Assembly (NCBI GenBank): GCA_035263165.1
Contig: DATFRN010000450.1
Span: forward strand, 17,152 to 81,151
Direction: 5' to 3'
DNA length: 64,000 nt
From: Acidimicrobiales bacterium
GTDB taxonomy: Bacteria; Actinomycetota; Acidimicrobiia; Acidimicrobiales; VFJN01
Part shown: in pieces, positions 1,189-59,675 of the stretch
How the letters are laid out: the number at the start of each line of letters is the position of its first letter
How positions within the stretch are numbered: the first letter of the stretch is position 1
The notes under the pieces: generated by a model
Database searches by the model: none
What the model was told of the DNA's origin: nothing
What the model saw: only the letters and a program-made list of their open reading frames with translations
Position numbers and translations under genes: made by a program

Positions 1189-2339
1189 GGCGCGGACTCC
1201 AGGTCGTCGACCAGCTCGTCGAACAGCGCCAGCACGCGGTCGTCGTCCACCTCCTGCTCGGCCAGGTACTCGGCGAACAGGTCGTGGGGCGTGCGCCGCA
1301 GACGGTCGGGGTCGGCCGGCCTCCGGTCGTCGTCGCCGCCCCGCGGGGCGAGCACCACCTCGACGGCCTGGGGCACCCGCTCGCGCACCTCGTCGGCCAG
1401 GCCGGCCCGGGGCGCCTCGTCCAGCACGACCCGCAGGTGGTCGGCCTCGCCGGCCCCGGCCGCCGCGGCCAGGACGTCGACCAGCGTGCCCCGCACGGTC
1501 CGCAGCCGGCTGCCCGTGGCCAGCCGCACCGCCTCGACCGCGGCCGGCAGCCCGGGCCGGACGTCGACCACGTTGACGACCGGCTCGTTGGCCGTCTCAC
1601 CGAAGTCCAGCTGGAGGGGCGAGCCGCAGTAGTGCAGCGGGGCCGGACCGGGCACCAGCTGGGCCCGGTGCAGGTGGCCGAGCGCCACGTACTGGGCGGC
1701 GGGCGGGAAGGCGGCGGCCGGCACCCAGTAGTCGAACACCGTGTGGGCGCCCCGCTCACCGCCGCCCATCGTCCCGCCCATGACCATGAGGTGGGCGACC
1801 ACGATGTTGACGGCGCCGCCGTCGAACCCCTCGGTGAGCAGCCGCAGCAGCCGGGCCACCCGGTCGGCGTAGGCGGCGTGGGCCTCGGCGGCGTCGCCGG
1901 CCAGCAGCAGGTCGGCGGTCACGACGTAGCGCTGGGACGGGAACGGCAGCAGGGCGACGCGGGCCCGCTCGCCACCGGCCTCGACCTCCAGCACGCCGCC
2001 GTCGCGGGGCGGGCGGACGGCCGACGCCACCGTGATGCCGCTGGCCTCGGACAGCGGGGCCACCGCGGCCAGCCGGGCCGCCGAGTCGTGGTTGCCGGCC
2101 ACCACCACGACCGGCCGCCCGCCGGCGGCCAGGTCGAGCAGCGCCCGGTAGACGATCCGCTCCGACTCGGCCGACGGGGTGGCGGTGTCGAACAGGTCAC
2201 CGGCCACGATCACCAGGTCGACCGCCCGCTCGTCGGCGACGGCGGCGATCTCGGCCAGCACCGCCCGGTGCTCGGCGGCCCGGGACCGGCCCCGGATCGC
2301 CTTGCCCACGTGCCAGTCGGAGGTGTGGAGCAGGCGCAC
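1185..2339 (-). CDS. sbcD: SbcD/Mre11-family nuclease (calcineurin-like phosphoesterase)
   Basis: This is the C-terminal 384 aa of track ORF 1185..4118, starting at GTG 2339 (cac at 2337-2339). Motifs seen: LHTSDWHVG, VAGDLFD, VAGNHD, GHLH. Confidence 0.9.
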   Translation of the reverse strand: MRLLHTSDWHVGKAIRGRSRAAEHRAVLAEIAAVADERAVDLVIVAGDLFDTATPSAESERIVYRALLDLAAGGRPVVVVAGNHDSAARLAAVAPLSEASGITVASAVRPPRDGGVLEVEAGGERARVALLPFPSQRYVVTADLLLAGDAAEAHAAYADRVARLLRLLTEGFDGGAVNIVVAHLMVMGGTMGGGERGAHTVFDYWVPAAAFPPAAQYVALGHLHRAQLVPGPAPLHYCGSPLQLDFGETANEPVVNVVDVRPGLPAAVEAVRLATGSRLRTVRGTLVDVLAAAAGAGEADHLRVVLDEAPRAGLADEVRERVPQAVEVVLAPRGGDDDRRPADPDRLRRTPHDLFAEYLAEQEVDDDRVLALFDELVDDLESAP

Positions 2340-2344
2340 GGGAG

Positions 2345-4027
2345 CTACCCGGTGGGGAACCCGACGAACGGGTCGTCGGCGCCCGCCGCGCTGCCCGGCA
2401 CCGCCTCGCCGGCCCGGGTGGCCCAGGCCGGGAACGGGAACTGCACCACCAGCGGCACCGGCAGCTCGGGCTGGGACACGATCATCGTGCCCGGCTTGAC
2501 GATCGTGGCCCGGGCCCGCTGCACCGGGGGCAGGAAGCCGTACTCGCCCCGGCCGGCCTCGGCGGCGTCGAGCCGGCCCACCACCCGCACCGCGGAGTTG
2601 GCCACCACCCGCCGCTCGACCTCGCTGGCCGTCTGCTGGGCGCCGATGAGGATGATGCCGAGCGAGCGGCCCCGCTCGGCCACGTCGAGCAGGATCTCCT
2701 TGATCGGGCTCGACCCCTCGCGGGGCGCGTACTTGTTGAGCTCGTCGAGTACGACGAACTGGAGCGGGCGGGCCTGGCCGGAGCGCTCCTTGCGCTCGAA
2801 CGCCCGCCGCAGCACGACGCCCACGACGAAGCGCTGGGCCCGGTCGTTGAGGTTGTGGAGGTCGACCACCGTGACCTGGGCCCGCTCGAAGTCGACCCGG
2901 TGGGTCTCGGGGCGGGGCACGTCGGCCCGGATGAGGTGGCGCAGGTGCGGCCGGGCGCCGTGGAGGCGGCGGAGGAAGGCGTTGACCGTGCCCGCCCCGA
3001 TGGCCCGGCCGGCCCACTGGTCGGGGGCGTCGGGGTCGACCTTGTCGCTGACGAGCTCGACCAGGTCGTCGAAGGTGCGCACGACCCGGCCGTCGACGGC
3101 GACCGCCCCGTCGCCCACCGGCTCGGCGTCGCGCTTGAGCCGGGCGGTGACGTTGTGGACGACCATCGTGTACTGCTGGCGGTCGTCCTCGGCGTCGGCG
3201 AACAGGAACGGGAGCAGCTCGTCGGCGCAGAACTGCTCCAGCGTCCAGAAGAAGCTGGTGACGTCGCGGGGACGGGCGGCGACGTCGGGGCTGGCGTTGG
3301 GGTCGTCGCGGGTCGGCGGGGCGAAGAACGCCACCGAGGCGAACGGCCCGGCCGGCAGGCCCAGGTGGGCGTAGCGGGCCGGCTGGTCGTCGGGCAGGGC
3401 GACGTTGGCGTGGTCGAGGAAGAGCAGGTCCTCGCCCTTGACGTTGAAGATGAGCGCCTTGGTGTTGGCCGCCTCGCTGCCCAGCGCCCCCGAGTGGAAC
3501 AGGCTGTAGAGCAGGAAGGTGGCGTAGGTGGTCTTGGTGGCCACGCCGGAGACGCCGCTGATGTTGACGTGGGCGCCCCGGGTGCCGTCGAGGAACTCGA
3601 GGTTCAGGTAGAACGGCTCGTCGTCGCGGGACAGTCCGGCCGGCAGCCGCTGGCGCATCTGGCTGAACAGCAGGGCGTCGTCCCGCTCGGCCCCGGTGGC
3701 CTTGCGCACGGCCTCGCCGGGCAGCGGGGGCACGAAGATCTCGGGCTCGAACCGGGTGGCCAGCACCTGGGCGGCCTCGCTCACCTGGGCGGGCAGCACG
3801 CCCTCGGCGACCAGGAAGACGTCGGAGTCGAGCCGGGCGCCCTCGTGGGTGGCCCGCACCTGGGACACGACCCCGGCGATGCGCAGGGGCTGCCCGTCGG
3901 GCAGGACGCGGTCGACCACGACCACGTCGTCGAGCTGCAGGTAGGCGCCCTCGGCGACCCCGACCCAGAACTCGAGCGGCGTGGCCGGCTCGGTGCCGAT
4001 GACCAGGCCCGCGGGCGTGCCCTCCAT
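2345..4027 (-). CDS. HerA/FtsK-like (DUF87-type) ATPase
   Basis: This is the last 560 aa of track ORF 2345..5035, from ATG 4027 (MEGTPAGLVIGTEPATPLEF...). Walker B is FVVLDELNKYAP. The P-loop is atypical (NISGVSGVATKTTY). The stop lies 5 nt before the sbcD start. Confidence 0.75.
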   Translation of the reverse strand: MEGTPAGLVIGTEPATPLEFWVGVAEGAYLQLDDVVVVDRVLPDGQPLRIAGVVSQVRATHEGARLDSDVFLVAEGVLPAQVSEAAQVLATRFEPEIFVPPLPGEAVRKATGAERDDALLFSQMRQRLPAGLSRDDEPFYLNLEFLDGTRGAHVNISGVSGVATKTTYATFLLYSLFHSGALGSEAANTKALIFNVKGEDLLFLDHANVALPDDQPARYAHLGLPAGPFASVAFFAPPTRDDPNASPDVAARPRDVTSFFWTLEQFCADELLPFLFADAEDDRQQYTMVVHNVTARLKRDAEPVGDGAVAVDGRVVRTFDDLVELVSDKVDPDAPDQWAGRAIGAGTVNAFLRRLHGARPHLRHLIRADVPRPETHRVDFERAQVTVVDLHNLNDRAQRFVVGVVLRRAFERKERSGQARPLQFVVLDELNKYAPREGSSPIKEILLDVAERGRSLGIILIGAQQTASEVERRVVANSAVRVVGRLDAAEAGRGEYGFLPPVQRARATIVKPGTMIVSQPELPVPLVVQFPFPAWATRAGEAVPGSAAGADDPFVGFPTG

Positions 4028-4077
4028 GGGATGCGACGTTATCGGCGCCCCAGGGGTCGATCGGAGGATGCCCGATT

Positions 4078-4120
4078 CCGTGGACGTTTCTGGCTGACTC
4101 CCAACCAGAAACGTCCACGG
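4078..4120. promoter_or_regulatory. Perfect inverted repeat (16-nt arms, 11-nt loop) in the divergent herA / MTHFR-like intergenic region
   Basis: CCGTGGACGTTTCTGG (4078-4093), loop ctgactcccaa, CCAGAAACGTCCACGG (4105-4120). The repeat is locally AT-richer than its surroundings. It lies 51 nt from the herA ATG and 13 nt from the GTG at 4133. The structure is certain; its role as an operator versus an RNA hairpin is not. Confidence 0.5.
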
Positions 4121-4132
4121 AACGGTCCTACG

Positions 4133-4933
4133 GTGGCCCCCGTGCGCCGTCCCTTCGAGATCGTGTGCGAGATCGAGCCCGCCACCACGCCCGACCTGAC
4201 CCGGGTGCGGCACCAGATCGGCGTGCTGGCCCCGGTGGCGTCGGCGTTCCTCATCCCCGACAACCACATCGGCCGGGCCACCGTGTCCAGCGTGGCCGTG
4301 GCGCACGAGGTCCAGGCCATGGGCGGGCGGGCCATCGCCTGCCTCAACGCCCGCGACCGCAACCTGCTCGGCTTCCAGCGCGACCTGCTCACCGCGGCGG
4401 CCTACGGGGTCGAACGCTTCCTGTTCGTCTACGGCGACAAGCCCACCACCGGCGGGCGGACCAGCGAGCTCACCGTGCGGTCGATGGTCGAGACCGCCCG
4501 GGCGGCCGCCGAGCGGGCGCCGTTCGCCGGCCGGCCGCCGTTCGAGGTCGGGGTGGCCACCGGGCTGCGGCCGCTGCCGGCCTGGAAGCGGGCCGCCGAC
4601 TTCGTCTTCGTCCAGGTCGGGTTCTCGCTCGACCGGCTGCTGGCCTGGCGGGAGGCGACCGAGGTGGCGGGCGACGTCTACGCCGGCGTGATGGTGGTGG
4701 CGTCGCCGGCCATGGCCCGCGGCCTGGCGGCCACCGTGCCCGACATCGACGTCCCGCCCGGCCTGGTCGCCGCCCTGGCCGGCGACCCCGACGCCGGTGT
4801 CACCGCCGCGCTCGACCTGGTGGCCGGCATCGAGGCCAGCGGCGCGTTCGCCGGCGTCCACCTGGTCCCGGTGGGCCGCTACCGCCAGGTCGCCGCCCGC
4901 CTGGAAGGGCGCGGCCGCCTCGCCCGGGGGTGA
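4133..4933 (+). CDS. Methylenetetrahydrofolate reductase (MetF-like) family protein
   Basis: This is the C-terminal part of track ORF 2855..4933 from GTG 4133: VAPVRRPFEIVCEIEPATTPDLTRVRHQIG...FLIPDNHIGRATVSS...FVFVQVGFS. This fits the MTHFR TIM-barrel pattern. The start could instead be GTG 4142. Confidence 0.7.
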   Translation: MAPVRRPFEIVCEIEPATTPDLTRVRHQIGVLAPVASAFLIPDNHIGRATVSSVAVAHEVQAMGGRAIACLNARDRNLLGFQRDLLTAAAYGVERFLFVYGDKPTTGGRTSELTVRSMVETARAAAERAPFAGRPPFEVGVATGLRPLPAWKRAADFVFVQVGFSLDRLLAWREATEVAGDVYAGVMVVASPAMARGLAATVPDIDVPPGLVAALAGDPDAGVTAALDLVAGIEASGAFAGVHLVPVGRYRQVAARLEGRGRLARG

Positions 4934-4955
4934 CCCGGCGGCGTACGGTCCCGCC

Positions 4956-5666
4956 ATGTCCGACGCCCCCGGTCCCGTCACCACCACCGTCGAGGACGGC
5001 GTCGCCGTCGTCCGCTTCGACGACGGCAAGGCCAACGTCCTGTCCTACGCGGCGCTGAACGCGTTGGCCGCCGCCCTCGACCGGGCCGGGGCGGACGCCG
5101 ACGCCGTGTGCCTGGTGGGCCGGGAGGGCAAGCTCTCGGCCGGGTTCGACCTGGCCGTCATGACCGCCGGCCCCGACGCCGCCCGGGGCCTGGTCGCCCA
5201 GGGCTGCGACCTGCTCCTGCGGCTCTACGAGCACCCCCAGCCCGTGGTCGTCGCCGTCACCGGCCACGCCCTGGCCGCCGGGGCGCTGCTGGTGCTGGCC
5301 TGCGACGTGCGCATCGGCGCCGACGTGCCCGCCAAGATCGGGCTCAACGAGACCGCCATCGGGATGCCCCTGCCGCTGTTCGCCGTGGCCCTGGCCGAGG
5401 ACCGCCTGGCCCGCACCCACCTGAGCCGGGCGACCGTCACCGCCGAGATCTACGACCCGGCCGGGGCGGTCGCCGCCGGCTACCTGGACCGGGTCGTCCC
5501 GGTCGAGGCGGTCGAGGGCGAGGCCATCGTCGAGGCCCGCCGCCTGGCCGCCTACAGCACCACCGCCTACGGCCAGACCAAGCAGGTCCTCCGGGGCCCG
5601 ACCATCGCCCGGGTCCGGGCCGGCAACGAGGCCGACCTGGCCCGGTTCGCGGTCCAGCCCGGCTGA
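4956..5666 (+). CDS. Enoyl-CoA hydratase/crotonase family protein
   Basis: From ATG 4956: MSDAPGPVTTTVEDGVAVVRFDDGKANVLS...GKLSAGFDL...VTGHALAAGALLVLACDVRIG. Confidence 0.85.
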   Translation: MSDAPGPVTTTVEDGVAVVRFDDGKANVLSYAALNALAAALDRAGADADAVCLVGREGKLSAGFDLAVMTAGPDAARGLVAQGCDLLLRLYEHPQPVVVAVTGHALAAGALLVLACDVRIGADVPAKIGLNETAIGMPLPLFAVALAEDRLARTHLSRATVTAEIYDPAGAVAAGYLDRVVPVEAVEGEAIVEARRLAAYSTTAYGQTKQVLRGPTIARVRAGNEADLARFAVQPG

Positions 5667-5674
5667 CGGCCGGA

Positions 5675-5702
5675 CCCGGGGCGGGGTTGTCTCCGCCCCG
5701 GG
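5675..5702 (+). terminator. GC-rich stem-loop just after the crotonase stop
   Basis: CCCGGGGCGG, loop ggttgtct, CCGCCCCGGG: a 10-bp stem 9 nt after the TGA at 5664-5666. There is no clear U-tract. Confidence 0.4.
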
Positions 5703-5722
5703 GGGCCGGTAGCCATGGCCCC

Positions 5723-6016
5723 ATGCCCGCCACCTGCTCCCACCTCGACACCATCCAGCCCGTGACCCCCTCGTCCGAGGGCTGCGAGGACTGTCTGCGC
5801 ACGGGCGGCCGCTGGGTCCACCTGCGGGTGTGCCAGGCGTGCGGCCACGTCGGGTGCTGCGACAGCTCGCCCAACCGCCACGCCACCGCCCACTTCCACG
5901 CCACCGAGCACCCCATCGTCCGCTCCTACGAGCCGGGCGAGGACTGGTGGTGGTGCTACGCCGACGAGGTCGGCTTCGAGGTGCCCGGGGCCGAGCCGGC
6001 GCCGTCCCACCCCTGA
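5723..6016 (+). CDS. UBP-type zinc-finger domain protein (97 aa)
   Basis: MPATCSHLDTIQPVTPSSEGCEDCLRTGGRWVHLRVCQACGHVGCCDSSPNRHATAHFHATEHPIVRSYEPGEDWWWCY. The Cys/His spacing is typical of zf-UBP. Confidence 0.8.
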   Translation: MPATCSHLDTIQPVTPSSEGCEDCLRTGGRWVHLRVCQACGHVGCCDSSPNRHATAHFHATEHPIVRSYEPGEDWWWCYADEVGFEVPGAEPAPSHP

Positions 6017-6038
6017 CCGCGCCCGTACGATCCCGGCC

Positions 6039-6530
6039 ATGTCCGCCACCGACGAGTTGGTCGCCAACAACGCCGCCTACGCGTCCGGCTTCACCAAGGG
6101 CGACCTCGCCGCGCCCCCGAACCTGAAGGTGGCGGTGCTCGCGTGCATGGACGCCCGCTTCGACCCGGCCCGCGCCCTCGGGCTCCAGGAGGGCGACGCC
6201 CACGTCATCCGCAACGCCGGCGGGACCGTGACCGACGACGCCATCCGCTCGCTGCTCGTCAGCCAGCGGATGCTCGGGACCCGGGAGATCGTCGTCATCC
6301 ACCACACGGATTGCGGGATGCTCGGCTTCCGGGACGACGAGGCCGCGGCGGCGATCGAGGCCGAGACCGGCGTCCGGCCCCCCTTCGCGCTGGGGGCCTT
6401 CGGTGACCTGGAGGACGATGTCCGCCAGTCGGTCGCCCGGATCGAGGCCAGCCCGTTCCTGCCCCGGACCCGCAGCGTGCGGGGGTTCGTCTACGAGGTC
6501 GAGACCGGGCGCCTGCGCGAGGTCACCTGA
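6039..6530 (+). CDS. Beta-class carbonic anhydrase
   Basis: 163 aa. Zinc-ligand motifs: VLACMDARF and HHTDCGM. Confidence 0.9.
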   Translation: MSATDELVANNAAYASGFTKGDLAAPPNLKVAVLACMDARFDPARALGLQEGDAHVIRNAGGTVTDDAIRSLLVSQRMLGTREIVVIHHTDCGMLGFRDDEAAAAIEAETGVRPPFALGAFGDLEDDVRQSVARIEASPFLPRTRSVRGFVYEVETGRLREVT

Positions 6531-6581
6531 TCCGCCCCCGCCGGCCGCCCACCGGGGATAATGCGCCGGGAGGAGGTCGCC

Positions 6582-7586
6582 ATGCCCGCAACCGTCCGAC
6601 GCCGCCCCGCCCGGGCCCTGCTGGCCGCCGCGCTCGTCGCCGCCGTCGCCCTGGTCGCCGGGGCCCCCGCCGCCGGGGCCCAGGACCGGGCCGACCGCGA
6701 CAACCTGGTCGTGATCACGGGCCGGGCCGAGGTCCACCAGGGCGAGCGCTTCCACAACGTGGTCATCGCCGACGGGCCGGTCACCGTGGACGGCACCGTC
6801 ACCGACAACGTCGTGGCCCTCCACGGCGACGTCACGGTGAACGGCCTGGTCAGGAACGACGTCGTGGCCCTGGACGGCACGGTGACCGTGGCGTCCGGCG
6901 GGCGCATCGCCGGCGACGTCACCGCCCGCCACCGGCCGACGGTCGAGTCGGGCGGGCGATTCGACGGCTCGTGGGACCGCTGGAACCCCCAGGCCTGGAG
7001 CACGGCCACCACCATCCTCACCCGCCTGGCCCTGTGGCTCGCCGTCACGATCTCGACGCTGCTGCTCGGCCTGCTCCTCTACCTCCTCGCCCCCCGGGCG
7101 GCGTTCGCCGTGCACGAGGCCGCCGGATCCCGCGTCGGCGCCGCCATCGGCTGGGGGCTGCTGCTGGCGATCGGCCTGCCGCTGGCCGCCCTGATCGTGA
7201 CGGCGACCCTGATCGGCCTGCCCCTCGGGCTCGGGGTGCTGTTCGCGCTCGGGCTCATCTACGGCGCCGGCTACGTGGCGGCCGCCTGGCTGCTGGGCCG
7301 GACGATGGCCCGGCGCGCCCATCCGCTGCTGTCGTTCCTGGCCGGGTGGGGCATCCTGCGGGTGGTGGCCCTGGTGCCGGTGCTGGGCGGGCTGTGCTGG
7401 TTCGCCGCGGTCGTGATCGGGCTCGGGTCGATCGCCGTCGCCATCTGGCGGGCCCGGCACCCGGGCGACCGGATCCCGGTCGACGGCACCCCGCTCGCCC
7501 CGTCCCCGCCTCCGCCTCCGCCTGCGCCGCCGGCGCCGCCGGCTCCGACGCTGCCGGAATCGACCCCGCCTGCGCCGGGGTTCTAG
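6582..7586 (+). CDS. Membrane protein: signal peptide, bactofilin-like repeat region, polytopic TM region, poly-Pro tail
   Basis: GGAGG lies 7 nt before ATG 6582. The sequence has a signal-like LLAAALVAAVALVAGAPAAGA and repeated G(D/T)V(T/V)xxxVVAL(H/D)G(D/T)VTV units. It then has several hydrophobic helices and a C-terminal PSPPPPPPAPPAPPAP. Confidence 0.6.
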   Translation: MPATVRRRPARALLAAALVAAVALVAGAPAAGAQDRADRDNLVVITGRAEVHQGERFHNVVIADGPVTVDGTVTDNVVALHGDVTVNGLVRNDVVALDGTVTVASGGRIAGDVTARHRPTVESGGRFDGSWDRWNPQAWSTATTILTRLALWLAVTISTLLLGLLLYLLAPRAAFAVHEAAGSRVGAAIGWGLLLAIGLPLAALIVTATLIGLPLGLGVLFALGLIYGAGYVAAAWLLGRTMARRAHPLLSFLAGWGILRVVALVPVLGGLCWFAAVVIGLGSIAVAIWRARHPGDRIPVDGTPLAPSPPPPPPAPPAPPAPTLPESTPPAPGF

Positions 7587-7589
7587 CCG

Positions 7590-8666
7590 CTAGGGCGCCC
7601 GCCCGTCGTGGGCGGCGTGGAGCAGGTGGCGCACGTCGGGCGCCGAGACCGGCCGAGGGTTGGCGTCGACCTCCGCCACCACCAGCTCCGCCGCCTGGTC
7701 GAGGCCCGAGGCCGGCATCCCGATGGCGGCCAGGCTGGTGGGCGCGCCGGTGGCCACCGCCAGGTCGTGGAGCTGGGAGGCGGCGTAGACCGCCTCGGGC
7801 CGGCCGCCGAGCGACACGGCCACGCAGGCCAGCGCCTCGGGGGCCGCCACCGCGTTGAAGGCGGCGACGTAGGGCAGCAGCACCGCGTGGGCGGCCGCGT
7901 GGTCGAGGCCGAACGTGCCCCCGAGGACGTGGCACAGCTTGTGGTGCAGGCCGGTGCCGGCCACGGCCATCGCCGAGCCGGCCAGGTAGGCGCCGTAGAG
8001 CGCCCAGCCCCGGGCGGTCAGGTCGCCGGGCGCGGCCACCGCCGCCGGCAGGGCGCCGGACAGGGCCCGGATGGCCTCCTCGGCCTGGAGCGCCACCAGC
8101 GGGTCGACCGCCGGGGCGTAGAGGGCCTCGACGCAGTGGGCCAGGGCGTTGAACCCGCTGGTGGCCGTGGCCAGCGGCGGGAGCGTGACGCTGAGCGACG
8201 GGTCGTAGACGACCACCCGCGGCAGCGCCCGCAGGTCGCGCCCGGTCCGCTTGTGGGCGCCGGTGATGCCGAACACCGGGGTCATCTCCGACCCCGAGTA
8301 GGTGGTGGGCACCGCCAGCAGCGGCGCCCCCGACGCCACCGCCACCACCTTGCCCAGCCCGATGGCCGAGCCGCCGCCGACGCAGACGATGCCGTCGACG
8401 TCGGACTCGGTGGCCGCGGCCCGGGCGGCGGCCGCCAGGTCCTCCGGGACGTGCTGGCGGACCTCGCCGAAGGGCAGCGCGCACCGCCACCCCAGCGCCT
8501 CCGCGATGCCGTTGCCGGCGGCCCGGGCCGACGGCGTGGTGATGACCATGACCCGCTGCAGGCCGAGGTGCTCGACCTCGCCGGCCACGCGGTCGACGGC
8601 CCCCAGGCCGAAGACGACGCGGCCCGGCAGCGACTCGTGCTCGAAGGGCGTGACGCCCAGGCTCAT
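7590..8666 (-). CDS. Iron-containing alcohol dehydrogenase family protein (maleylacetate reductase-like)
   Basis: From ATG 8666: MSLGVTPFEHESLPGRVVFGLGA...VCVGGGSAIGLGK...GLHHKLCHVLGG. Confidence 0.8.
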   Translation of the reverse strand: MSLGVTPFEHESLPGRVVFGLGAVDRVAGEVEHLGLQRVMVITTPSARAAGNGIAEALGWRCALPFGEVRQHVPEDLAAAARAAATESDVDGIVCVGGGSAIGLGKVVAVASGAPLLAVPTTYSGSEMTPVFGITGAHKRTGRDLRALPRVVVYDPSLSVTLPPLATATSGFNALAHCVEALYAPAVDPLVALQAEEAIRALSGALPAAVAAPGDLTARGWALYGAYLAGSAMAVAGTGLHHKLCHVLGGTFGLDHAAAHAVLLPYVAAFNAVAAPEALACVAVSLGGRPEAVYAASQLHDLAVATGAPTSLAAIGMPASGLDQAAELVVAEVDANPRPVSAPDVRHLLHAAHDGRAP

Positions 8667-8874
8667 GCCCGCTCCCCGATGCTTCCCATCCCAGTTCCGA
8701 CTGCTGTCGGCGCCCCGCCGACCGGCCGCTGCGATCGCCGCGGCCGGCGCCCCCTCCGATTGCTCACCGCGCCCCCTCGTGCGGTCAGCCACGCTCTCTC
8801 GGTGGTCCCGAGCGTTCGCTAGGCGAACCTGCGTGCGCTGTGAGAAGCCATTCTCGGACCGCTAAGGCGACCTG

Positions 8875-10377
8875 TCAACCCGTCCCCGCCGCGAGGGACA
8901 GATCGCCCGCCGCGCCGGATCGAAGCTGGTCAAGAAGTCCAGTCTCCGCCTTGAGCGCCGTACGGGTCGCGCCGCTGAGGGCCCAGGGGCGCAGGCGGTC
9001 CGCCGCGGTGGCCAGCGCGCCGTCCCCGACCGCGCTGCGTGCCGCGGCCAGCGAGCGGTCGACGCCCACCACCACCGCGGTGGCCGCCAGCAGCTCGGCC
9101 AGGTCGGTGGCCAGCAGCGTGTCGCTGGCGGCCAGCTCGCTGAAGCCGAAGTCGATCATCCACACGGCCCCGTCGGCGGCCACGAACACGTTGGCCAGCC
9201 GCAGGTCGCGGTGGGCCAGGCGGTGGGCCCGCAGCAGCGCGACCTGCTCCCACACCTCCCCCAGCAGTCGGTCGTCGACCTCGGCGGCCTCGACCCGGTC
9301 GAGCGAGCGGCCGTCGATCGCCTCGTAGGCCAGCACGAACGACGCCGGCTCGGCCGTGGCCAGCGTGACGAACCGGGGCGTGCGCACGCCCAGGTCGCGG
9401 GCAGCCAGCGCCACCAGCGCCTCGTGCTCGACCGCCCGGCGCAGGGACAGGTAGCCGCTCTCGTCGCCCAGGTCGCGGGGGACGATGCGCCGGTAGAGGC
9501 GGAACAGCAGGTCGGCGCTGCGCTCGTCCCGGCCCAGCGACTTCACGAACAGCCGGCGGCCGTCCGCCGCCTCCGCGAACCAGGGCGTCGAGCCCCGGGC
9601 GTCCAGGCTGGCCTGGGTCAGCTTCCTGACCGGCACCCCCACCGCGGCCAGGCCGGCGGCGATGGCGTGGCCCCCCGCCCGGCGGGGCGGCGCCCCGAAG
9701 GCCAGGACGGCCAGCGCCCCCGCCAGCCAGCCCACCAGCAGCGCCCGCAGGGAGGCCAGGCCCACCGGCGCGATCAGCGACCGGCCCAGCATCACGCCGA
9801 TCACGACCAGCCAGGCCCAGCGCCGCCAGGACCGGCCCACCCACGGGGCGGCCGCGGTGGCCAGTGCCGCGGTCACGGCCACCGCCAGCTCGGTGGCCGT
9901 GGGGTGCCTGACGAACCAGTCGAGCACGTTGCTGCCGGTGGCCACGGGGGCGGCCGTGGGCTCCTCCGGCACCGAGAGGAGCCCGCCCAGCAGCAGGGCC
10001 AGGGCCACCCCCACCGCGCAGGACCGCAACGCCCGCCACCGCCGCTGCACCACCGTCACGACCGCGCCGCCGAGGAAGGCGACCAGGCCGATCAGCCAGG
10101 TCAGCTCGACCACCCCGGTGACCAGCCACGACGGCACGGTGTCCAGGCCGCTCGACAGGTCGTGGGCGTTGCGGACCACCTGGTCGCCGGCCAGCCACTG
10201 GACCAGCAGCAGCGCCACCAGCGCGGCGGCCGCCACCACCACGCGCAGGACGTCCGCCGGCGAGCGCTCGGCCGCGGCCGGCGGGCTCTCGGTCACCTCG
10301 ACGTCAGGAGCGACGGCGGGGGCGGGAGCGGCGGCGGTCGTGTCCACACCCGACCATGGCGCCGGTGAACGTGTCAC
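8875..10377 (-). CDS. Polytopic membrane protein with a C-terminal protein-kinase-like domain
   Basis: 500 aa, GTG start. The N-terminal half has multiple hydrophobic helices. The C-terminal half carries the catalytic-loop-like HRLAHRDLRLANVFV and MIDFGFSE. Confidence 0.65.
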   Translation of the reverse strand: MTRSPAPWSGVDTTAAAPAPAVAPDVEVTESPPAAAERSPADVLRVVVAAAALVALLLVQWLAGDQVVRNAHDLSSGLDTVPSWLVTGVVELTWLIGLVAFLGGAVVTVVQRRWRALRSCAVGVALALLLGGLLSVPEEPTAAPVATGSNVLDWFVRHPTATELAVAVTAALATAAAPWVGRSWRRWAWLVVIGVMLGRSLIAPVGLASLRALLVGWLAGALAVLAFGAPPRRAGGHAIAAGLAAVGVPVRKLTQASLDARGSTPWFAEAADGRRLFVKSLGRDERSADLLFRLYRRIVPRDLGDESGYLSLRRAVEHEALVALAARDLGVRTPRFVTLATAEPASFVLAYEAIDGRSLDRVEAAEVDDRLLGEVWEQVALLRAHRLAHRDLRLANVFVAADGAVWMIDFGFSELAASDTLLATDLAELLAATAVVVGVDRSLAAARSAVGDGALATAADRLRPWALSGATRTALKAETGLLDQLRSGAAGDLSLAAGTG

Positions 10378-13944: not shown

Positions 13945-14024
13945 GTTATTGTCACCGGCGGGGCGGATCGATGCTGAGGGCTGGGGAACCCTCGCTGGTC
14001 AGCAAGAGCGAGCCCGGAGGGATC

Positions 14025-15221
14025 GTGTCGGTCTGCCGTCATACGTTGCTATTGCGTGTACTCATCGCCTCGGTCGTGCTCCTGGGGATCACGATCCCGG
14101 CCGCCCAGGCCGAGACGCCTCAGCAGCAGCAGGACCGGCTGCGGGCCCAGCGCTCCCAGGTCGCCAAGGACGTCGACGCGCTGAAGGCGGCCGACGCCAA
14201 GACCACGGCCGAGCTGGCCCGCCTCCAGGGCGAGCTGTCCCGGCGCCAGGCCACCGCCGACAAGGCCAACCGGGCCAAGGCCCGGGCCGACGCCGACCTC
14301 CGGGACGCCGAGGCCGCGGTCACCAAGGCCCGCAAGCGCTACAACACCCTGAACGCCCAGGCCGACGCGCTGGTGGTCCAGTCGTTCATCTCGCCGGGCG
14401 ACGAGGCGCTCGACCTCTTCAAGGCGGGCTCGCTCACCGACGCCGCCGTCAAGCGCTCGCTGGAGGAGATGCAGGCCGAGAGCGACGCCCGGCTCCTGCG
14501 CGACCTCACGTCGGCCCGCCACCGGCTGGACACCGACCAGGACCGCAAGGAGGAGGCGGCCTCCACGGCCGACGCCAGCGACGCCCGGGCGACCAAGGCC
14601 GTGCAGCAGATGAAGGCCGCCCGCGACAAGCAGCAGGCCTACGTGGCCAAGGTGCGCAAGCAGCTCGACGCGAAGCTGGCCGAGGCCGACGCGCTCAAGC
14701 AGGTCGACGCCGCCCTGTCCAAGCAGATCGCGGCGCAGCAGGCCGCCCTGGCCGCCCAGCTACCGCCGGCGCCGGCGTCGGGCGACGGCAGCCCGACCGC
14801 CATCGCCTCCGTCCCCGGTGGGTTGGCCACGGTCGCCTGCCCGGGGGGCGGCAGCATCACGGTGGCGGGGTCCATCGCCGACCAGGTGGCGGCCCTGCTG
14901 GGTGCGGCCAACGCCGACGGCGTGCAGCTCTGCGGCGGCGGCTACCGCGACCCGGCGGAGCAGATCGCCCTGCGCAAGGCCCACTGCGGCCCGACGAACT
15001 ACGACATCTACGAGAAGCCGTCGTCGGAGTGCGATCCGCCCACGGCACCGCCCGGCACGTCGCAGCACGAGGTGGGGCTGGCCATCGACTTCACCTGCAA
15101 CGGCGGCGGCGTGGTGACCACGGGCGACGTGTGCTGGGACTGGCTGTCAGCCCACGCGTCCGAGTACGGCCTCTACAACCTGCCCTCCGAGTCCTGGCAC
15201 TGGTCGACCACCGCCACCTAG
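14025..15221 (+). CDS. Secreted coiled-coil protein with a C-terminal M15B/VanY-type D-Ala-D-Ala carboxypeptidase domain
   Basis: GTG 14025 preceded by GGAGGG gives the signal peptide VSVCRHTLLLRVLIASVVLLGITIPAAQA. The track start at 13971 is the alternative. About 230 aa of heptad-like Q/A/K/D-rich sequence follows, then SQHEVGLAIDF and SESWHW (SxHxxGxAxD and ExxH motifs). Confidence 0.8.
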   Translation: MSVCRHTLLLRVLIASVVLLGITIPAAQAETPQQQQDRLRAQRSQVAKDVDALKAADAKTTAELARLQGELSRRQATADKANRAKARADADLRDAEAAVTKARKRYNTLNAQADALVVQSFISPGDEALDLFKAGSLTDAAVKRSLEEMQAESDARLLRDLTSARHRLDTDQDRKEEAASTADASDARATKAVQQMKAARDKQQAYVAKVRKQLDAKLAEADALKQVDAALSKQIAAQQAALAAQLPPAPASGDGSPTAIASVPGGLATVACPGGGSITVAGSIADQVAALLGAANADGVQLCGGGYRDPAEQIALRKAHCGPTNYDIYEKPSSECDPPTAPPGTSQHEVGLAIDFTCNGGGVVTTGDVCWDWLSAHASEYGLYNLPSESWHWSTTAT

Positions 15222-15316: not shown

Positions 15317-15739
15317 TCAGGCCGGCGCGGCGGCGCTGCCGCCGCCGACGACCCGGGCCTTCATCGCCTCGAACTCCTCGTTCGTGATCGTCCCGCTGTC
15401 CCGCAGCTGGCCGAGGCGGGCCAGGTCGTCGACCGGGCCCGAGCCCGAGGTGCCCGCGGTGTCCCGCACATAGGCGTCGAACTGCTGCTGGGCCTCCCGG
15501 GCCTGCGTGGCCGAGCGCTCGGCCATGCCGCTGCCGCGGGCGATCAGGTAGATGAGCGATCCCACCAACGGGAAGATGATCAGCGCGATCACCCACAGCG
15601 CCTTGCCCCAACCGCCCGTCGACCGGTCGCGGAACAGGTCGCTGATGATGGCGATGAACACCCAGATGAACAGGATCAGGAAGAAGATCCAGATCGTCGT
15701 CCAGATCAGGTCCGACAGATGCACGTCGGCTAGAACCAC
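15317..15739 (-). CDS. PLD-nuclease-N-terminal (PLDc_N) membrane domain plus SHOCT domain protein
   Basis: 140 aa, GTG start. Motifs: IWIFFLILFIWVFIAIISDLF...GWGKALWVIALIIFPLVGSLIYL, and a C-terminal LARLGQLRDSGTITNEEFEAMKARV. Confidence 0.8.
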   Translation of the reverse strand: MVLADVHLSDLIWTTIWIFFLILFIWVFIAIISDLFRDRSTGGWGKALWVIALIIFPLVGSLIYLIARGSGMAERSATQAREAQQQFDAYVRDTAGTSGSGPVDDLARLGQLRDSGTITNEEFEAMKARVVGGGSAAAPA

Positions 15740-15838: not shown

Positions 15839-16117
15839 TCAGTCGCCGCCCGCGGCGACCGCCGTGAACCGGCCGGCGTAGGGGTCCTCGACCGGGTCGA
15901 GCAGGGTGAGCCGGAAGGCGTGCCCGACGACGTCGGGATCGGCGAAGTCCCGCGACGGGCTGTGGACGAGCAGCGTGAGGGTCGTGCCGTCGCCGGCGAG
16001 CTCCCCCTCCTCCACCCGCTCGACATCGACGGTCACCAGCCACCGCCGCCGCCGGTCCCGCTGACGGCCGTCGACGACCGCCGCGCGCACCGTCCCCGTC
16101 AGGGTCACCGCGGCCAT
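15839..16117 (-). CDS. Small (92 aa) cytoplasmic hypothetical protein, in an immunity-like position
   Basis: MAAVTLTGTVRAAVVDGRQRDRRRRWLVTVDVERVEEGELAGDGTTLTLLVHSPSRDFADPDVVGHAFRLTLLDPVEDPYAGRFTAVAAGGD. ATG 16117 lies 2 nt after the stop of the upstream toxin-like gene. Confidence 0.55.
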   Translation of the reverse strand: MAAVTLTGTVRAAVVDGRQRDRRRRWLVTVDVERVEEGELAGDGTTLTLLVHSPSRDFADPDVVGHAFRLTLLDPVEDPYAGRFTAVAAGGD

Positions 16118-16119
16118 CG

Positions 16120-17349
16120 TCAGCTGACCGTCTTGCACACGGTCTTCATCGCCTTGAGCACCTCCTGGTAGAAGGGGATCTCCGCGCCGTAGGCGTTGAT
16201 CTCGTCGCTGATCCAGTCCGCGGCGTTGTTCCAGGCGGCCTGGAACTGGGGCGTCCCGGCCCCGAACTTCTTGCGCAGGGCCAGCGTATGGGCCTGGTGC
16301 ACCCCCTCGTGGATCTCCGTGCCCCGGGTCATGATCGGCTCGCACTTGGTCATCGGCTGGGCGGCGACGGTGACCGCCCCGGTCGAGCTCGTGCCCCCGG
16401 CCTGGGACGTCGTGATGCCCTGCTTGCCCAGCGAGGCGTCCACGCAGTTCTCGACGTCGTCGCCGGTGCGGATGCCCTTGCGGCCCCGGCACGCGGCGTA
16501 CTCGGCCGCCATCTTCCGGGCCCAGGCGATCGCCTCCCTGATCGCCTTCTCGCACCCGGCGCCGGTGGCGCCCTTGCAGTAGGACACGTCGACGTCGACG
16601 CCGCGCACGTCGACCACGAGGTTGGCCCCGAGGAAGCGGAAGATCGCCGTGCGCTGGTCGGGCGGGAACGTCTCGACCATGTCGACGACGCGGCGCAGGT
16701 CGTCGTGGCTCGGCGTGCCGGCCGCCCGCAGCTCGACCACCTTGCACGCCACGTCCATGCGGGGGCCGCCGCGCCCCGCGTTCGCCTTGACGACCGAGAA
16801 CCTGCCCGCCGTCTGCAGGCCCGACAGGACGGTCAGCAGCTCCGGCATCGCCCGGCCGTTGAGCACGAAGAAGGCGTCGTCGAGGGCCGTCGGGGCGACC
16901 GAGTCGAGCGCGTCGATGACGGCCTGCAGCGGCGCCTTCCCGACGACGGGTGGTGTCTGGCGGGCCACGACCACGTCGCCCGGCTCCTCGCCGTCGTGGA
17001 CCGCCCCGCCCCCGGCGCCGCAGCCGCACGTGCCGCCGCAGCCGCAGTCCCGCTGCACCGTCGCCGACGCCACCAGCCGCTGGACGGCGGCGTTGCCCCC
17101 CGCACCCTGGAGGAACCCGAGCAGGCGGGCCGCCCCGCCCGCATCGAGCCGGCCGAGGGCCGCGGGGGCCGCCACGCCCGGGGACCGGCGGCCGCCGGTC
17201 CGGAGGGCCGCCGGCTCGGCCCCCTCGCCGGGGGCCGGGTGGAGTCGCACGTCGGCGGCGTGCACCGCCCCAGTGTGCGGCCGCGACCGCCCGCTGTCCC
17301 GGCCCGGCGCACGGCCCGTCCGTGCAGACCTGGTTGCCCGATCGGGCAA
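16120..17349 (-). CDS. Cys-rich multi-domain protein with an N-terminal AGNxAVQRL motif and a C-terminal HExxH (putative metallopeptidase/toxin-like effector)
   Basis: LLGFLQGAGGNAAVQRLVASATVQRDCGCGGTCGCG (motif at nt 17074-17124). HEGVH is encoded at 16297-16311 (CAC GAG GGG GTG CAC on the minus strand). There are 11 Cys. The start is uncertain: 17349, or GTG near 17265. Confidence 0.65.
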   Translation of the reverse strand: MPDRATRSARTGRAPGRDSGRSRPHTGAVHAADVRLHPAPGEGAEPAALRTGGRRSPGVAAPAALGRLDAGGAARLLGFLQGAGGNAAVQRLVASATVQRDCGCGGTCGCGAGGGAVHDGEEPGDVVVARQTPPVVGKAPLQAVIDALDSVAPTALDDAFFVLNGRAMPELLTVLSGLQTAGRFSVVKANAGRGGPRMDVACKVVELRAAGTPSHDDLRRVVDMVETFPPDQRTAIFRFLGANLVVDVRGVDVDVSYCKGATGAGCEKAIREAIAWARKMAAEYAACRGRKGIRTGDDVENCVDASLGKQGITTSQAGGTSSTGAVTVAAQPMTKCEPIMTRGTEIHEGVHQAHTLALRKKFGAGTPQFQAAWNNAADWISDEINAYGAEIPFYQEVLKAMKTVCKTVS

Positions 17350-17355
17350 CCAGGC

Positions 17356-17694
17356 TCAGTCGCCGAGGTGCTCGCGGGCGACGCTCTTCGGGACGCACAT
17401 GCGCCAGGCGTCGAGGACCAGCTCGCGCATCTCGTCGGGGTCGAGGGCGTCCATGCGGGCGACGACCCAGTTGTAGCGCATGTCCCCGCGGCCGGGGAGC
17501 TGGAACTTGTCGGGCTCGGAGGCGACCAGCGCCTCCCGCTCCTCCTTCGGGAAGCCGAACCCCATCAACGTCTCGTCCCGGGAGAACGCCAGGTAGACGA
17601 TGCGCCCGATCCGGAACTTCACCCGGTCGCGCACCAGCGCCTCGGTCGTGCGGGGCAGGGTCAGCGCCAGCGCCCGTACCTCCTCGACGGTCAC
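17356..17694 (-). CDS. MmcQ/YjbR family DNA-binding protein
   Basis: VTVEEVRALALTLPRTTEALVRDRVKFRIGRIVYLAFSRDETLMGFGFPKEEREALV... GTG 17694 overlaps the upstream TGA (GTGA). Confidence 0.8.
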   Translation of the reverse strand: MTVEEVRALALTLPRTTEALVRDRVKFRIGRIVYLAFSRDETLMGFGFPKEEREALVASEPDKFQLPGRGDMRYNWVVARMDALDPDEMRELVLDAWRMCVPKSVAREHLGD

Positions 17695-18590
17695 CACGGC
17701 GGGTCCCGCCGGGGGACCGTGGCCGCCAGCGCGGCCAGGCAGGCGTCGCCGCCGGCCGCGTCGTCCAGCGAGAACGTGACCAGCCGCTGGTCGGGATGGT
17801 CGGCCACCTCGAGCACCACGTGGCGCAGCAGCATCTCGCCCGCCGCCGGGTGGCGCAGGCGCTTGGTGCCCCCGGCCATCGGCAGCACCTCGTGGCGGGG
17901 CCACCACCGGCGGACCTCGGGGCTGGCGTCGTGCAGCCGGGCGATCAGGTCGGCGAACGCCGGGTCGTCGGGGCGGCGGGCGGCGACCAGCCGGAAGCGG
18001 GCCAGCACGGCGTGGGCCTCCCGCTCCCACTCGACGTAGACCTGGCGGGCCTCGGGGGCGGTGAACACCCACCACAGCATGTTGCGGTCCTCGGGCGGGC
18101 GGGCCGGCCAGTCGGTGAACAGCGCCCGGGCCGCCCGGTTGGCGGCGAGCACGTCGGCGCGGCGGCCCTTGACGTAGGTCGGGTGGGGGTCGAGTCGGGC
18201 CACCAGGTCGGCCATCCCCGGTGCCAGCACCTCGGCCGCCGCCTCGCCGCCGTCGTCGTCGACCGGCAGCCGCTGGTGGGCCAGCACGTGGATCTGGTCG
18301 CGCTCGACCGGGCTGAGCCGCAGCGCCCGGGCCAGCGCGTCGAGCACCGCGGGCGAGGGCCGGACGTCCCGGGCCTGCTCGAGGAACGTGTAGTACGTCG
18401 CCGACACGCCCGCGAGCTGGGCCACCTCCTCCCGGCGCAGGCCACGGGTGCGGCGCCGGCTGCCGGGCGGCAGCCCGACGTCGGCCGGCTGGAGGCCCTC
18501 CCGGCGCGACCGCAGCAGCAGCGCCAGCTCCCGCCGGGGCGTGTTCGGCGCCGGCCGGCCGGGCGCGGCGGCGCCGTCGATGGCGGTCAC
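17691..18590 (-). CDS. XRE-type HTH regulator with an MmyB-like C-terminal domain
   Basis: LRREEVAQLAGVSATYYTFLEQARDVRPSPAVLDALARALRLS, then ...NMLWWVFTAPEARQVY. I prefer GTG 18590 over the track start at 18680, which would run into the divergent SDR start. Confidence 0.8.
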   Translation of the reverse strand: MTAIDGAAAPGRPAPNTPRRELALLLRSRREGLQPADVGLPPGSRRRTRGLRREEVAQLAGVSATYYTFLEQARDVRPSPAVLDALARALRLSPVERDQIHVLAHQRLPVDDDGGEAAAEVLAPGMADLVARLDPHPTYVKGRRADVLAANRAARALFTDWPARPPEDRNMLWWVFTAPEARQVYVEWEREAHAVLARFRLVAARRPDDPAFADLIARLHDASPEVRRWWPRHEVLPMAGGTKRLRHPAAGEMLLRHVVLEVADHPDQRLVTFSLDDAAGGDACLAALAATVPRRDPPW

Positions 18591-18674: not shown

Positions 18675-19445
18675 GTGCAATCACTCCCCACCCTCGCAGG
18701 CACCGCCGCCCTGGTCACGGGCGCCTCCAGCGGCATCGGCCACGCCACCGCCCGCAGCCTCGCCTCCCGGGGCGCCGCCGTCGCCCTCGCCGCCCGCCGC
18801 ACCGAGCGCCTGGAGGAGCTCGCCAGCGACATCCGCTCCGGCGGCGGCTCGGCGGTCGTGATCCCCGCCGACGTCACCGACGAGAAGCAGGCCCGCGAGG
18901 CGGTCGCCCGCACGGTCGAGGTCCTCGGCCGGCTCGACACGCTGGTCAACAACGCCGGCGTGATGCTGCTCGGCCCCATCGTCGACGCCCCCGTCGAGGA
19001 GTGGCGGCGCATGGTCGAGCTCAACCTCGTCGGACTGCTCCACTGCACCCACGCCGCCCTCCCCCACCTGATCGACGCGGCCGCCACCGGTCAGCGCCGC
19101 GTCGCCGACGTGGTCAACATCAGCTCGGTGGCCGGCCGGGTGGCCCGGAACGGCAACGGCGTCTACACCGCCACCAAGCACGCGGTCGGCGCCTTCAGCG
19201 AGTCGCTGCGCCAGGAGCTGGCCGGCCGGCACGTGCGGGTGTCGCTGGTCGAGCCGGGCGCGACCGCCACCGAGCTCGCCAGCCACAACCGCCCCGAGAT
19301 CCGCGAGCGCATCGCCGGGCGCTTCGAGGGCGTCGAGCGGCTCACCTCCGAGGACATCGCCGACACGGTCGAGTTCATCGTCAGCCGGCCGTGGCACATG
19401 GCGGTGAACGAGGTGCTCGTGCGCCCCACCGAACAGGAGGGCTAG
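18675..19445 (+). CDS. SDR family oxidoreductase
   Basis: From GTG 18675: VQSLPTLAGTAALVTGASSGIGHA...NNAG...YTATKHA. Confidence 0.9.
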   Translation: MQSLPTLAGTAALVTGASSGIGHATARSLASRGAAVALAARRTERLEELASDIRSGGGSAVVIPADVTDEKQAREAVARTVEVLGRLDTLVNNAGVMLLGPIVDAPVEEWRRMVELNLVGLLHCTHAALPHLIDAAATGQRRVADVVNISSVAGRVARNGNGVYTATKHAVGAFSESLRQELAGRHVRVSLVEPGATATELASHNRPEIRERIAGRFEGVERLTSEDIADTVEFIVSRPWHMAVNEVLVRPTEQEG

Positions 19446-50372: not shown

Positions 50373-50547
50373 AACCGCCTCCGCTGCCGCTCCACCACCG
50401 ACCGTCGCCGATCCGGCCCACCCCGGGCAGTGCCGCCGGTGAGGCCGGAGGGGCAGATCCGCGTGCCCGATCGGGCAGCCCGGCAGGCGGGATGCCGCGG
50501 AGGGTGGGCCGGTTGCGCGAGCGTGGAGGCAGGACGCAGCGAGCGAG

Positions 50548-59662: not shown

Positions 59663-59675
59663 GTCGGGGTCCCTT

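Follow-up and report, generated by a model that had tools for sequence, protein, structure and literature searches.

A putative toxin-immunity-type gene pair with an HExxH domain and an OB-like partner in an Acidimicrobiales bacterium

Do four closely packed genes on the minus strand of a contig from an Acidimicrobiales bacterium form one functional module, and what is encoded by the two genes at its downstream end? The locus is part of a 64 kb stretch of 75% guanine plus cytosine (GC) content (GenBank assembly GCA_035263165.1, contig DATFRN010000450.1, positions 17,152 to 81,151 of the forward strand), which was analysed as a whole and is called the window in the following; all positions without a locus name refer to it. 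A preliminary description of this DNA had joined an MmyB-type regulator, a YjbR/MmcQ-family protein, a large effector-like protein and a small immunity-like open reading frame (ORF) into a single four-gene string. Here, we observe that comparison with related loci divides the four genes into two units and speaks against one module. The conserved unit is the pair of the large and the small gene. Judged from sequence comparison, it is probable, if with some reservation, that the two genes of this pair constitute a toxin-immunity-type cassette of the kind known from polymorphic toxins. All four minus-strand ORFs are real genes: as is typical of coding sequence in genomes of this kind, their third positions are rich in GC (0.96-0.98; 0.97 for the large gene). 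The pair is composed as follows, where residue numbers, here and throughout, follow the 409-amino acid (aa) reading of the large protein.

16120..17265, minus strand: large effector-like protein; 381 aa if it starts, as is probable, at GTG 17265, and 409 aa in the maximal ORF from TTG 17349
16942..17265, minus strand: disordered N-terminal leader of the large protein
16615..16941, minus strand: helical middle domain of the large protein, aa 137-245
16123..16614, minus strand: C-terminal domain of the large protein, aa 246-409, approximately 164 aa
15839..16117, minus strand: small partner protein, 92 aa

The two genes of the pair occur together. When the window proteins were compared by tblastn with all recovered loci, the large and the small gene were found side by side in 13 out of 13 independent loci, and each recovered contig has a small ORF (80-112 aa) directly 3' of the large gene. 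In the window, 2 nt (CG, 16118-16119) separate the stop codon of the large ORF from the ATG of the small one, exactly as first described, while in four relatives the two reading frames have 4 nt in common. The small ORFs share 48-62% identity and the invariant motifs RDRxRRWLVT, LVHSP and PYxG. The locus search made use of the alignments A1 and A6, since the broad alignment A4 of the C-terminal domain was too diverse. Close homologues of the large protein are few, namely 10 among 5.8 billion clustered proteins, and full-length relatives were found in 6 of 185,579 species genomes: Acidimicrobiales, two metagenome-assembled genomes (MAGs) of Mycobacteriales, Actinorhabdospora filicis NBRC 111898, one MAG of Actinomycetota and one MAG labelled Dehalococcoidaceae. 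The small protein has 68 homologues. No relatives of either family were detected in a scan of 2.9 million viral contigs. The genes flanking the pair vary by locus and include those for glutamate dehydrogenase, an integrase, an acetyltransferase and thiolase; in Actinorhabdospora filicis the pair is located between rapZ/whiA and uvrC.

The MmyB and YjbR genes do not take part in this conservation. The tblastn comparison places them next to the pair only in locus L003, and in none of the 12 other loci. L003 is 99-100% identical to the window and belongs to the same species, and it is therefore not counted as independent support. Because only the pair is syntenic in relatives, the four-gene module fails and the two-gene pair survives. 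The upstream features are:

17691..18590, minus strand: MmyB-like transcription regulator, 299 aa from GTG 18590, with HTH_31 and MLTR_LBD
17356..17694, minus strand: YjbR/MmcQ-family protein, 112 aa, GTG start
17329..17354, minus strand: perfect hairpin CCTGGTTGCCC-GATC-GGGCAACCAGG, 26 nt

The identities first given to the two genes are in good agreement with Pfam, which assigns MLTR_LBD (PF17765, 6.6e-49) and HTH_31 (PF13560, 6.2e-12) to the one and YjbR (PF04237, 1.4e-9) to the other. Both genes thus fall under the Pfam definitions of MmyB-like regulators and YjbR/MmcQ proteins, and outside their own species neither is linked to the effector-like pair. The start codon GTG 18590 of the MmyB gene, with GGGGGGAGACC upstream, agrees with a 299-aa gene call in L003. 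It might still be argued that MmyB and YjbR control or assist an effector-immunity pair as parts of one regulated module, since all genes share one strand, the MmyB stop and the YjbR GTG start overlap by 4 nt (GTGA, 17691-17694, reproduced here) and the arrangement recurs in L003. Apart from the identity of L003 and the empty record of the 12 other loci, this argument is opposed by the perfect hairpin behind the YjbR stop and by the orientation of MmyB, which faces a divergent gene for a short-chain dehydrogenase (approximately 18700-19445, plus strand; PF00106 in the identical L003). The dehydrogenase gene is a likelier regulatory partner of MmyB/YjbR than the pair. We regard a four-gene module as highly improbable; the comparison indicates that MmyB and YjbR form a separate unit next to the dehydrogenase gene and are mere neighbours of the pair. 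The first reading is corrected in this respect, as the locus holds no new regulator-toxin module.

The hairpin begins one base past the YjbR stop. It has a perfect stem of 11 bp with a 4-nt loop (GATC) and no T-tract, and the stem comprises 12 pairs in the minimum-energy fold of the RNA. Its 20-nt core is unique in the window at 0 mismatches, with 0.01 chance matches expected; a copy with three mismatches is located at 50461-50480, approximately 33 kb off, in or next to a gene for a QmoC/TmcC-like membrane protein. The hairpin is likely a transcript boundary or a regulatory site between the two units, and could serve as a terminator or an operator. A scan for terminators gave two sites, none of them between the genes of interest, and a scan for consensus promoters gave no sites.

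The same hairpin bears on the start of the large gene. TTG 17349 sits within its stem, the start lies approximately 28-33 codons after this codon in homologues and in a separate gene call, and a GGGG run stands just upstream of GTG 17265. For these reasons the start at GTG 17265 is favoured, which yields 381 aa. Of the 6-nt gap between YjbR and the large gene given in the preliminary description (17350-17355), the letters GCCTGG are correct, while the gap as such and the length of 409 aa are doubtful, as both hang on TTG 17349. It is likelier that approximately 90 nt and a strong stem-loop separate yjbR from the large gene, and this distance, too, argues against a common module.

What, then, is the pair? 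A profile search over 1.84 billion representative proteins returned 241 matches, and the middle and C-terminal parts of the large protein match separately. Nearly all of the separately matched proteins carry eCIS_core (PF13699, formerly DUF4157; Pfam), a domain named after the extracellular contractile injection systems (eCIS), N-terminal of the matched part. The last approximately 160 residues of the large protein align with the C-terminal ends of many proteins that are 200-720 aa long. This C-terminal domain terminates eCIS_core/DUF4157 proteins, follows Rhs-type DPxGL junctions in relatives and ends an RHS_repeat ORF of at least 1329 aa in locus L022.

The small gene goes along with it. In the Rhs locus L018 (P0036) the domain is followed by an ORF of 160 aa (1962-2444), the C-terminal half of which is recognised by the profile of the small ORF (hhalign 97.3%, E = 2.8e-11), and in L022 the RHS-repeat protein is followed by a small-protein homologue of 133 aa (4001-4399). 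In the DUF4157 locus L019 (P0022) the domain protein lies downstream of genes for a Tail_P2_I baseplate-type protein and an Amidase_3 protein, and next comes a homologue that reads '...DPLHRDRILRWLV...LIHSPSKTF...'. A small-protein homologue likewise stands behind the C-terminal domain in L020 and L021. As far as these loci tell, what the small gene accompanies over three delivery architectures is the C-terminal domain and not the N-terminus. In the polymorphic-toxin framework, an immunity gene is defined by staying downstream of a C-terminal domain on delivery scaffolds that are themselves unrelated (PMC3482391). It is for this reason that we read the small protein as an immunity protein, and it is predicted to be the cognate immunity protein or inhibitor of the C-terminal domain. 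The toxin-like build of the large protein and the immunity-like position of the small ORF, both proposed at the outset, are thereby supported: the parts of the large protein recombine as modules, and the small ORF is conserved, translationally coupled and attached to the HExxH domain across Rhs and eCIS_core/DUF4157 proteins. Two traits of polymorphic toxin systems (PMC3482391) are seen, as the C-terminal domain sits on varied N-terminal modules (leader plus middle domain, DUF4157 or Rhs/DPxGL) and the putative immunity gene lies directly downstream and tracks it in all 13 loci.

A divergent relative of the C-terminal domain in L026 makes an exception. It has 301 aa and no homologue of the small partner, and it heads an operon (1272-10023) with a DUF4280 (PAAR-like) gene, gp25 and two Baseplate_J genes. 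The domain is there found within the structural part of a contractile-system locus, not at its toxin end. Two apparent fusions, P0186 (L027, 6001-6510) and P0117, in which the C-terminal domain is truncated and runs on into the small protein, first looked like a decayed toxin with its immunity part kept. They are probable frameshift or assembly artefacts, the contig being rich in split genes.

The C-terminal domain carries the motif HEGVH (aa 347-351, nt 16297-16311), which was reproduced at the position first reported, as was the count of 11 Cys in the 409-aa protein. In an alignment of 94 relatives across the region, H347, E348 and H351 are invariant (94 out of 94). E383, located 31 positions past H351, is Glu in 83 and Asp in 10 of the sequences and hence acidic in 93. 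A386 is Ala or Ser in all 94, and D382 is Asp in 75. The family signature reads HExxH-(31)-[D]ExxA[Y/R], and its second part is present as DEINAY at nt 16189-16206. Five of the six Cys of the domain are kept in most relatives, and several actinobacterial members have lost them. In the AlphaFold2 model of the large protein, which was built from an alignment of 11 sequences, HExxH lies on helix 337-362 and E383 on helix 376-408, with a predicted local distance difference test (pLDDT) score of approximately 90 or higher. An HExxH motif plus a downstream Glu on the following helix is the gluzincin pattern. Sequence and model taken together, the C-terminal domain is a probable gluzincin-type zinc peptidase.

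A recognisable zincin fold or family profile was not found for the C-terminal domain in the searches made, which included its profile against PDB sequences (no match) and a Pfam scan of 15 family members with E allowed up to 5 (noise only, with no peptidase or toxin-metallopeptidase model). We also considered the domain as a diverged second copy of DUF4157, as such copies occur in some Rhs proteins (Zhang et al. 2012, PMC3482391). It is not detectably related to DUF4157 by hhalign (probability 2.4%, 12 columns aligned), and the idea was rejected at this depth.

The small protein is mildly acidic (isoelectric point 5.0); a 99%-identical protein in an Acidimicrobiales MAG (NCBI) starts three codons later and has 89 aa. 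Its AlphaFold2 model (62 sequences, pLDDT 91.4) is confident and shows the OB topology, in that five strands form a barrel and a short helix connects strands 3 and 4. Foldseek gave weak matches to OB-fold proteins, with a best E = 0.08. The best superpositions were obtained with the C345C/netrin-type domains of complement C3 (TM 0.62-0.66), and TIMP-2 is among the proteins listed. The OB inhibitors of the TIMP/netrin group (NTR, C345C) resemble the small protein in being small five-stranded OB-like barrels placed to inhibit a zinc peptidase, and they differ from it in that the small protein has neither the N-terminal TIMP-type Cys nor disulfides and reaches no significant structural match. The resemblance may be generic to OB barrels; it is a suggestive analogy, not evidence. 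In the Rhs loci L018 and L022 the partners have hydrophobic, signal- or lipoprotein-like N-terminal extensions, which hints at a toxin that acts in the envelope of diderm targets.

The remaining parts of the large protein point to a cargo class. In the model, residues 1-136 are disordered (pLDDT <50), and residues 137-409 are mostly at approximately 90 or higher and nearly all helical, with a small hairpin at 246-253. Counted from GTG 17265, 56% of the first 108 residues are G, A, P or R. The N-terminal motif LQGAGGNAAVQRL (aa 80-92, nt 17074-17112) and the Cys cluster CGCGGTCGCG (aa 102-111, nt 17017-17046) are present as first described. The motif belongs to a leader, LQRxxGNxAV, that is located at positions 8-60 of many DUF4157 proteins, N-terminal of DUF4157, and in several of these a 'QRxCxC...C' cluster follows. 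The window protein itself is without eCIS_core/DUF4157, as no match to PF13699 was obtained at E <=0.1 in the protein or its neighbours. A scan for the export signals that the preliminary description had asked about (Sec, Tat and type VII secretion) found neither a hydrophobic segment nor RRx##, YxxxD/E or WxG in the large protein, and its N-terminal motif is instead the leader typical of eCIS_core/DUF4157 proteins.

The middle domain (profile positions approximately 60-210, residues approximately 137-245) has the signature 'LNGRAMxxLL...GGPRM...PPDQR' and matches internal segments of other, longer proteins. It precedes HopA1, a GH46 chitosanase domain or transmembrane-rich ends, and where DUF4157 is missing, the end that comes after it is Ntox4 or a VanY-like peptidase. 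These matches present it as a reusable module that stands after DUF4157 or the leader and before varied C-terminal ends. By the same comparison, the window protein carries the leader and middle module of the DUF4157 cargo class, minus DUF4157. Neither the large nor the small protein has a match in Pfam, NCBIfam, PADLOC or PDB.

The closest comparison is with the eCIS toxins that carry DUF4157, such as the 'PVC-metallopeptidase' toxins, the eCIS-associated toxins and Cgo1/Cgo2 of AlgoCIS. Like these, the window protein has a disordered leader followed by a variable C-terminal toxin domain. It shares the LQRxxGNxAV leader with many of them and the Cys cluster with several, and the same C-terminal domain with its partner is found on a DUF4157 protein beside a tail-like gene. 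The window protein differs in having no DUF4157 in itself or its neighbours and no injection genes within 64 kb. Many PVC-type toxins are without an adjacent immunity gene (PMC3482391), whereas the present domain nearly always has one. The second comparison is with Rhs/YD-repeat toxins that have metallopeptidase ends (Tox-MPTase1-5, Tox-HopH1, Tox-ALF; PMC3482391). Here the likeness consists in an HExxH domain at the toxin position, after a DPxGL-type junction in relatives, and in a cognate small gene immediately downstream; the window protein differs in that it has no Rhs repeats, and none of the toxin-metallopeptidase models in Pfam matches it at E up to 5. The pair would accordingly be placed, by its sequence relations, as a new toxin-domain family with a new partner family within the known polymorphic toxin-immunity class, here in an unusual DUF4157-less, stand-alone actinobacterial form.

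How such a protein might be delivered can be judged from what is known of eCIS cargo. An eCIS-associated toxin is expected within approximately ten genes of an eCIS operon, with DUF4157/eCIS_core in the protein or in a gene at most two positions away (PMC8213781; PMC11297309). No eCIS operon was found within the 64-kb window, and Pfam detects no DUF4157 within two positions. DUF4157 is a marker of eCIS of unknown role (PMC8213781, PMC11297309), and cargo loading in AlgoCIS needs a disordered N-terminal region, not DUF4157 (preprint 10.64898/2026.05.27.728243). A region of this type is found in residues 1-136 of the window protein. It may thus be an orphan cargo of an injection system encoded elsewhere in the genome, a proposal that we make tentatively and would sooner doubt than accept. 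A bolder version of it is speculative and rather unlikely. It states that the leader with its Cys cluster and the 'LNGxAM' middle domain constitute a self-sufficient targeting module that works without DUF4157. In Actinomycetota, such a module would route unlinked orphan cargo into a contractile injection system, which might be a cytoplasmic one of the kind that serves cell death, or into some export route as yet undescribed, encoded elsewhere; in the present case the cargo would be a new toxin of the zinc-peptidase type, restrained by a TIMP-like bacterial OB-fold inhibitor.

Several observations weigh against the toxin-immunity reading. Neither Pfam nor tblastn with tail-like queries revealed sheath, tube, gp25, baseplate, AAA or other tail-like or secretion genes in the window. 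The flanks of the pair in the actinobacterial loci, recovered to approximately 10 kb for most of them, yielded none either, which for L013, L014 and L016 is a weak negative obtained by tblastn only. The large protein is devoid of DUF4157. The actinobacterial copies are single cassettes amid housekeeping genes. The small protein and the toxin domain are conserved to about the same degree, and many immunity families are more diversified. The actinobacterial small proteins have no signal peptides, whereas the Rhs-linked ones have the hydrophobic N-terminal extensions; the eCIS-linked versions are also without extensions. As for the peptidase itself, residues 315-332 (GGTSSTGAVTV; GxTSSxGxVTV), just before the active-site helix, are highly conserved and yet form a low-confidence loop in the model. 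Finally, of the metallopeptidase fold suspected around HEGVH, the placement of HExxH on a modelled helix stands, while Foldseek on the large model found no resembling solved or viral structure, the best matches being without significance (E = 1.1 in PDB, 0.25 in BFVD).

Some of these observations would suit an endogenous zinc peptidase that comes with a dedicated inhibitor or chaperone and that the cell employs for itself, for example in envelope or protein processing, rather than as a weapon; leader and middle domain would then serve localisation or regulation. The solitary actinobacterial copies among housekeeping genes, the well-conserved partner, the missing export signal and the lack of injection or secretion genes nearby are all consistent with this, as is the gene for a VanY-type cell-wall peptidase close downstream in the window. 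We consider it quite unlikely, as the same C-terminal domain ends Rhs and eCIS_core/DUF4157 proteins, which are toxin positions (PMC3482391), and the N-terminal module is common to proteins that end in Ntox4 or HopA1. Moreover, the pair is very rare and patchy (the six species genomes mentioned above), unlike a housekeeping function, and its flanking genes vary at every locus.

This variability of the insertion context, with an integrase adjoining in one locus, would be expected of an intracellular cassette of the toxin-antitoxin, abortive-infection or cell-death type. In such a cassette both proteins remain in the cytoplasm, and once the small one is lost or inactivated, the peptidase is released and kills or arrests the cell that makes it. 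Cytoplasmic contractile systems have been described in Streptomyces, and a cassette of this kind might link to them. The tight translational coupling of the two genes and the absence of a signal peptide from both actinobacterial proteins agree with it. On the other hand, no PADLOC defence model matches either protein, neither was found among the 2.9 million viral contigs, and a long disordered leader with a middle domain, common to injection cargo and Ntox4/HopA1 proteins, has no role in a simple toxin-antitoxin pair. The signal-like extensions of the Rhs-linked partners point to action outside the cytoplasm in those lineages. We therefore assign a low probability to the intracellular cassette as well, and stay with the toxin-immunity-type pair.

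In this favoured reading, a cassette has been inserted among ordinary chromosomal genes of an Acidimicrobiales bacterium. The C-terminal domain would be a zinc endopeptidase, in which H347 and H351 bind zinc, E348 acts as the catalytic base and E383 provides the third ligand. The small protein would be made by translational coupling with the large gene, and its OB-like barrel would bind and block the C-terminal domain in the producer, plausibly via the face with the invariant VHSP and PYxG motifs. The leader, in turn, would pass the large protein on to a machine for injection or export, the genes of which would lie in another part of the genome.

If this is right, the polymorphic-toxin repertoire gains an uncatalogued HExxH...E toxin-domain family and an uncatalogued OB-like partner family. 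One toxin-partner pair is found on three vehicles, i.e., Rhs proteins, DUF4157/eCIS cargo and the DUF4157-less actinobacterial form. How cargo is recognised is still an open question for contractile injection systems, and the leader common to DUF4157 proteins offers a concrete, mutable candidate for the recognition signal. Since Actinorhabdospora filicis NBRC 111898 is cultured, these predictions are testable.

Some further features of the window were recorded. Directly downstream of the pair, Pfam identifies a D-Ala-D-Ala carboxypeptidase of the VanY type that has a long coiled coil in its N-terminal region (13971-15221, plus strand) and a small SHOCT/PLDc_N membrane protein (15317-15739, minus strand); both genes stand beside the pair only in the contig of the same species. 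Four very large ORFs show a strong coding signal, with a third-position GC of 0.91-0.97, and have no match in Pfam or NCBIfam:

55928-59881, minus strand: ORF of 1317 aa
59676-62585, minus strand: ORF of 969 aa
2345-5044, minus strand: ORF of 899 aa
6531-7586, plus strand: ORF of 351 aa

The first two overlap by approximately 200 nt as maximal ORFs. The segment 13000-13500 reaches 86% GC and contains many overlapping Arg/Pro/Gly-rich ORFs on both strands; it lies where a glyoxalase-type gene meets an Ala/Arg-rich ORF of approximately 298 aa.

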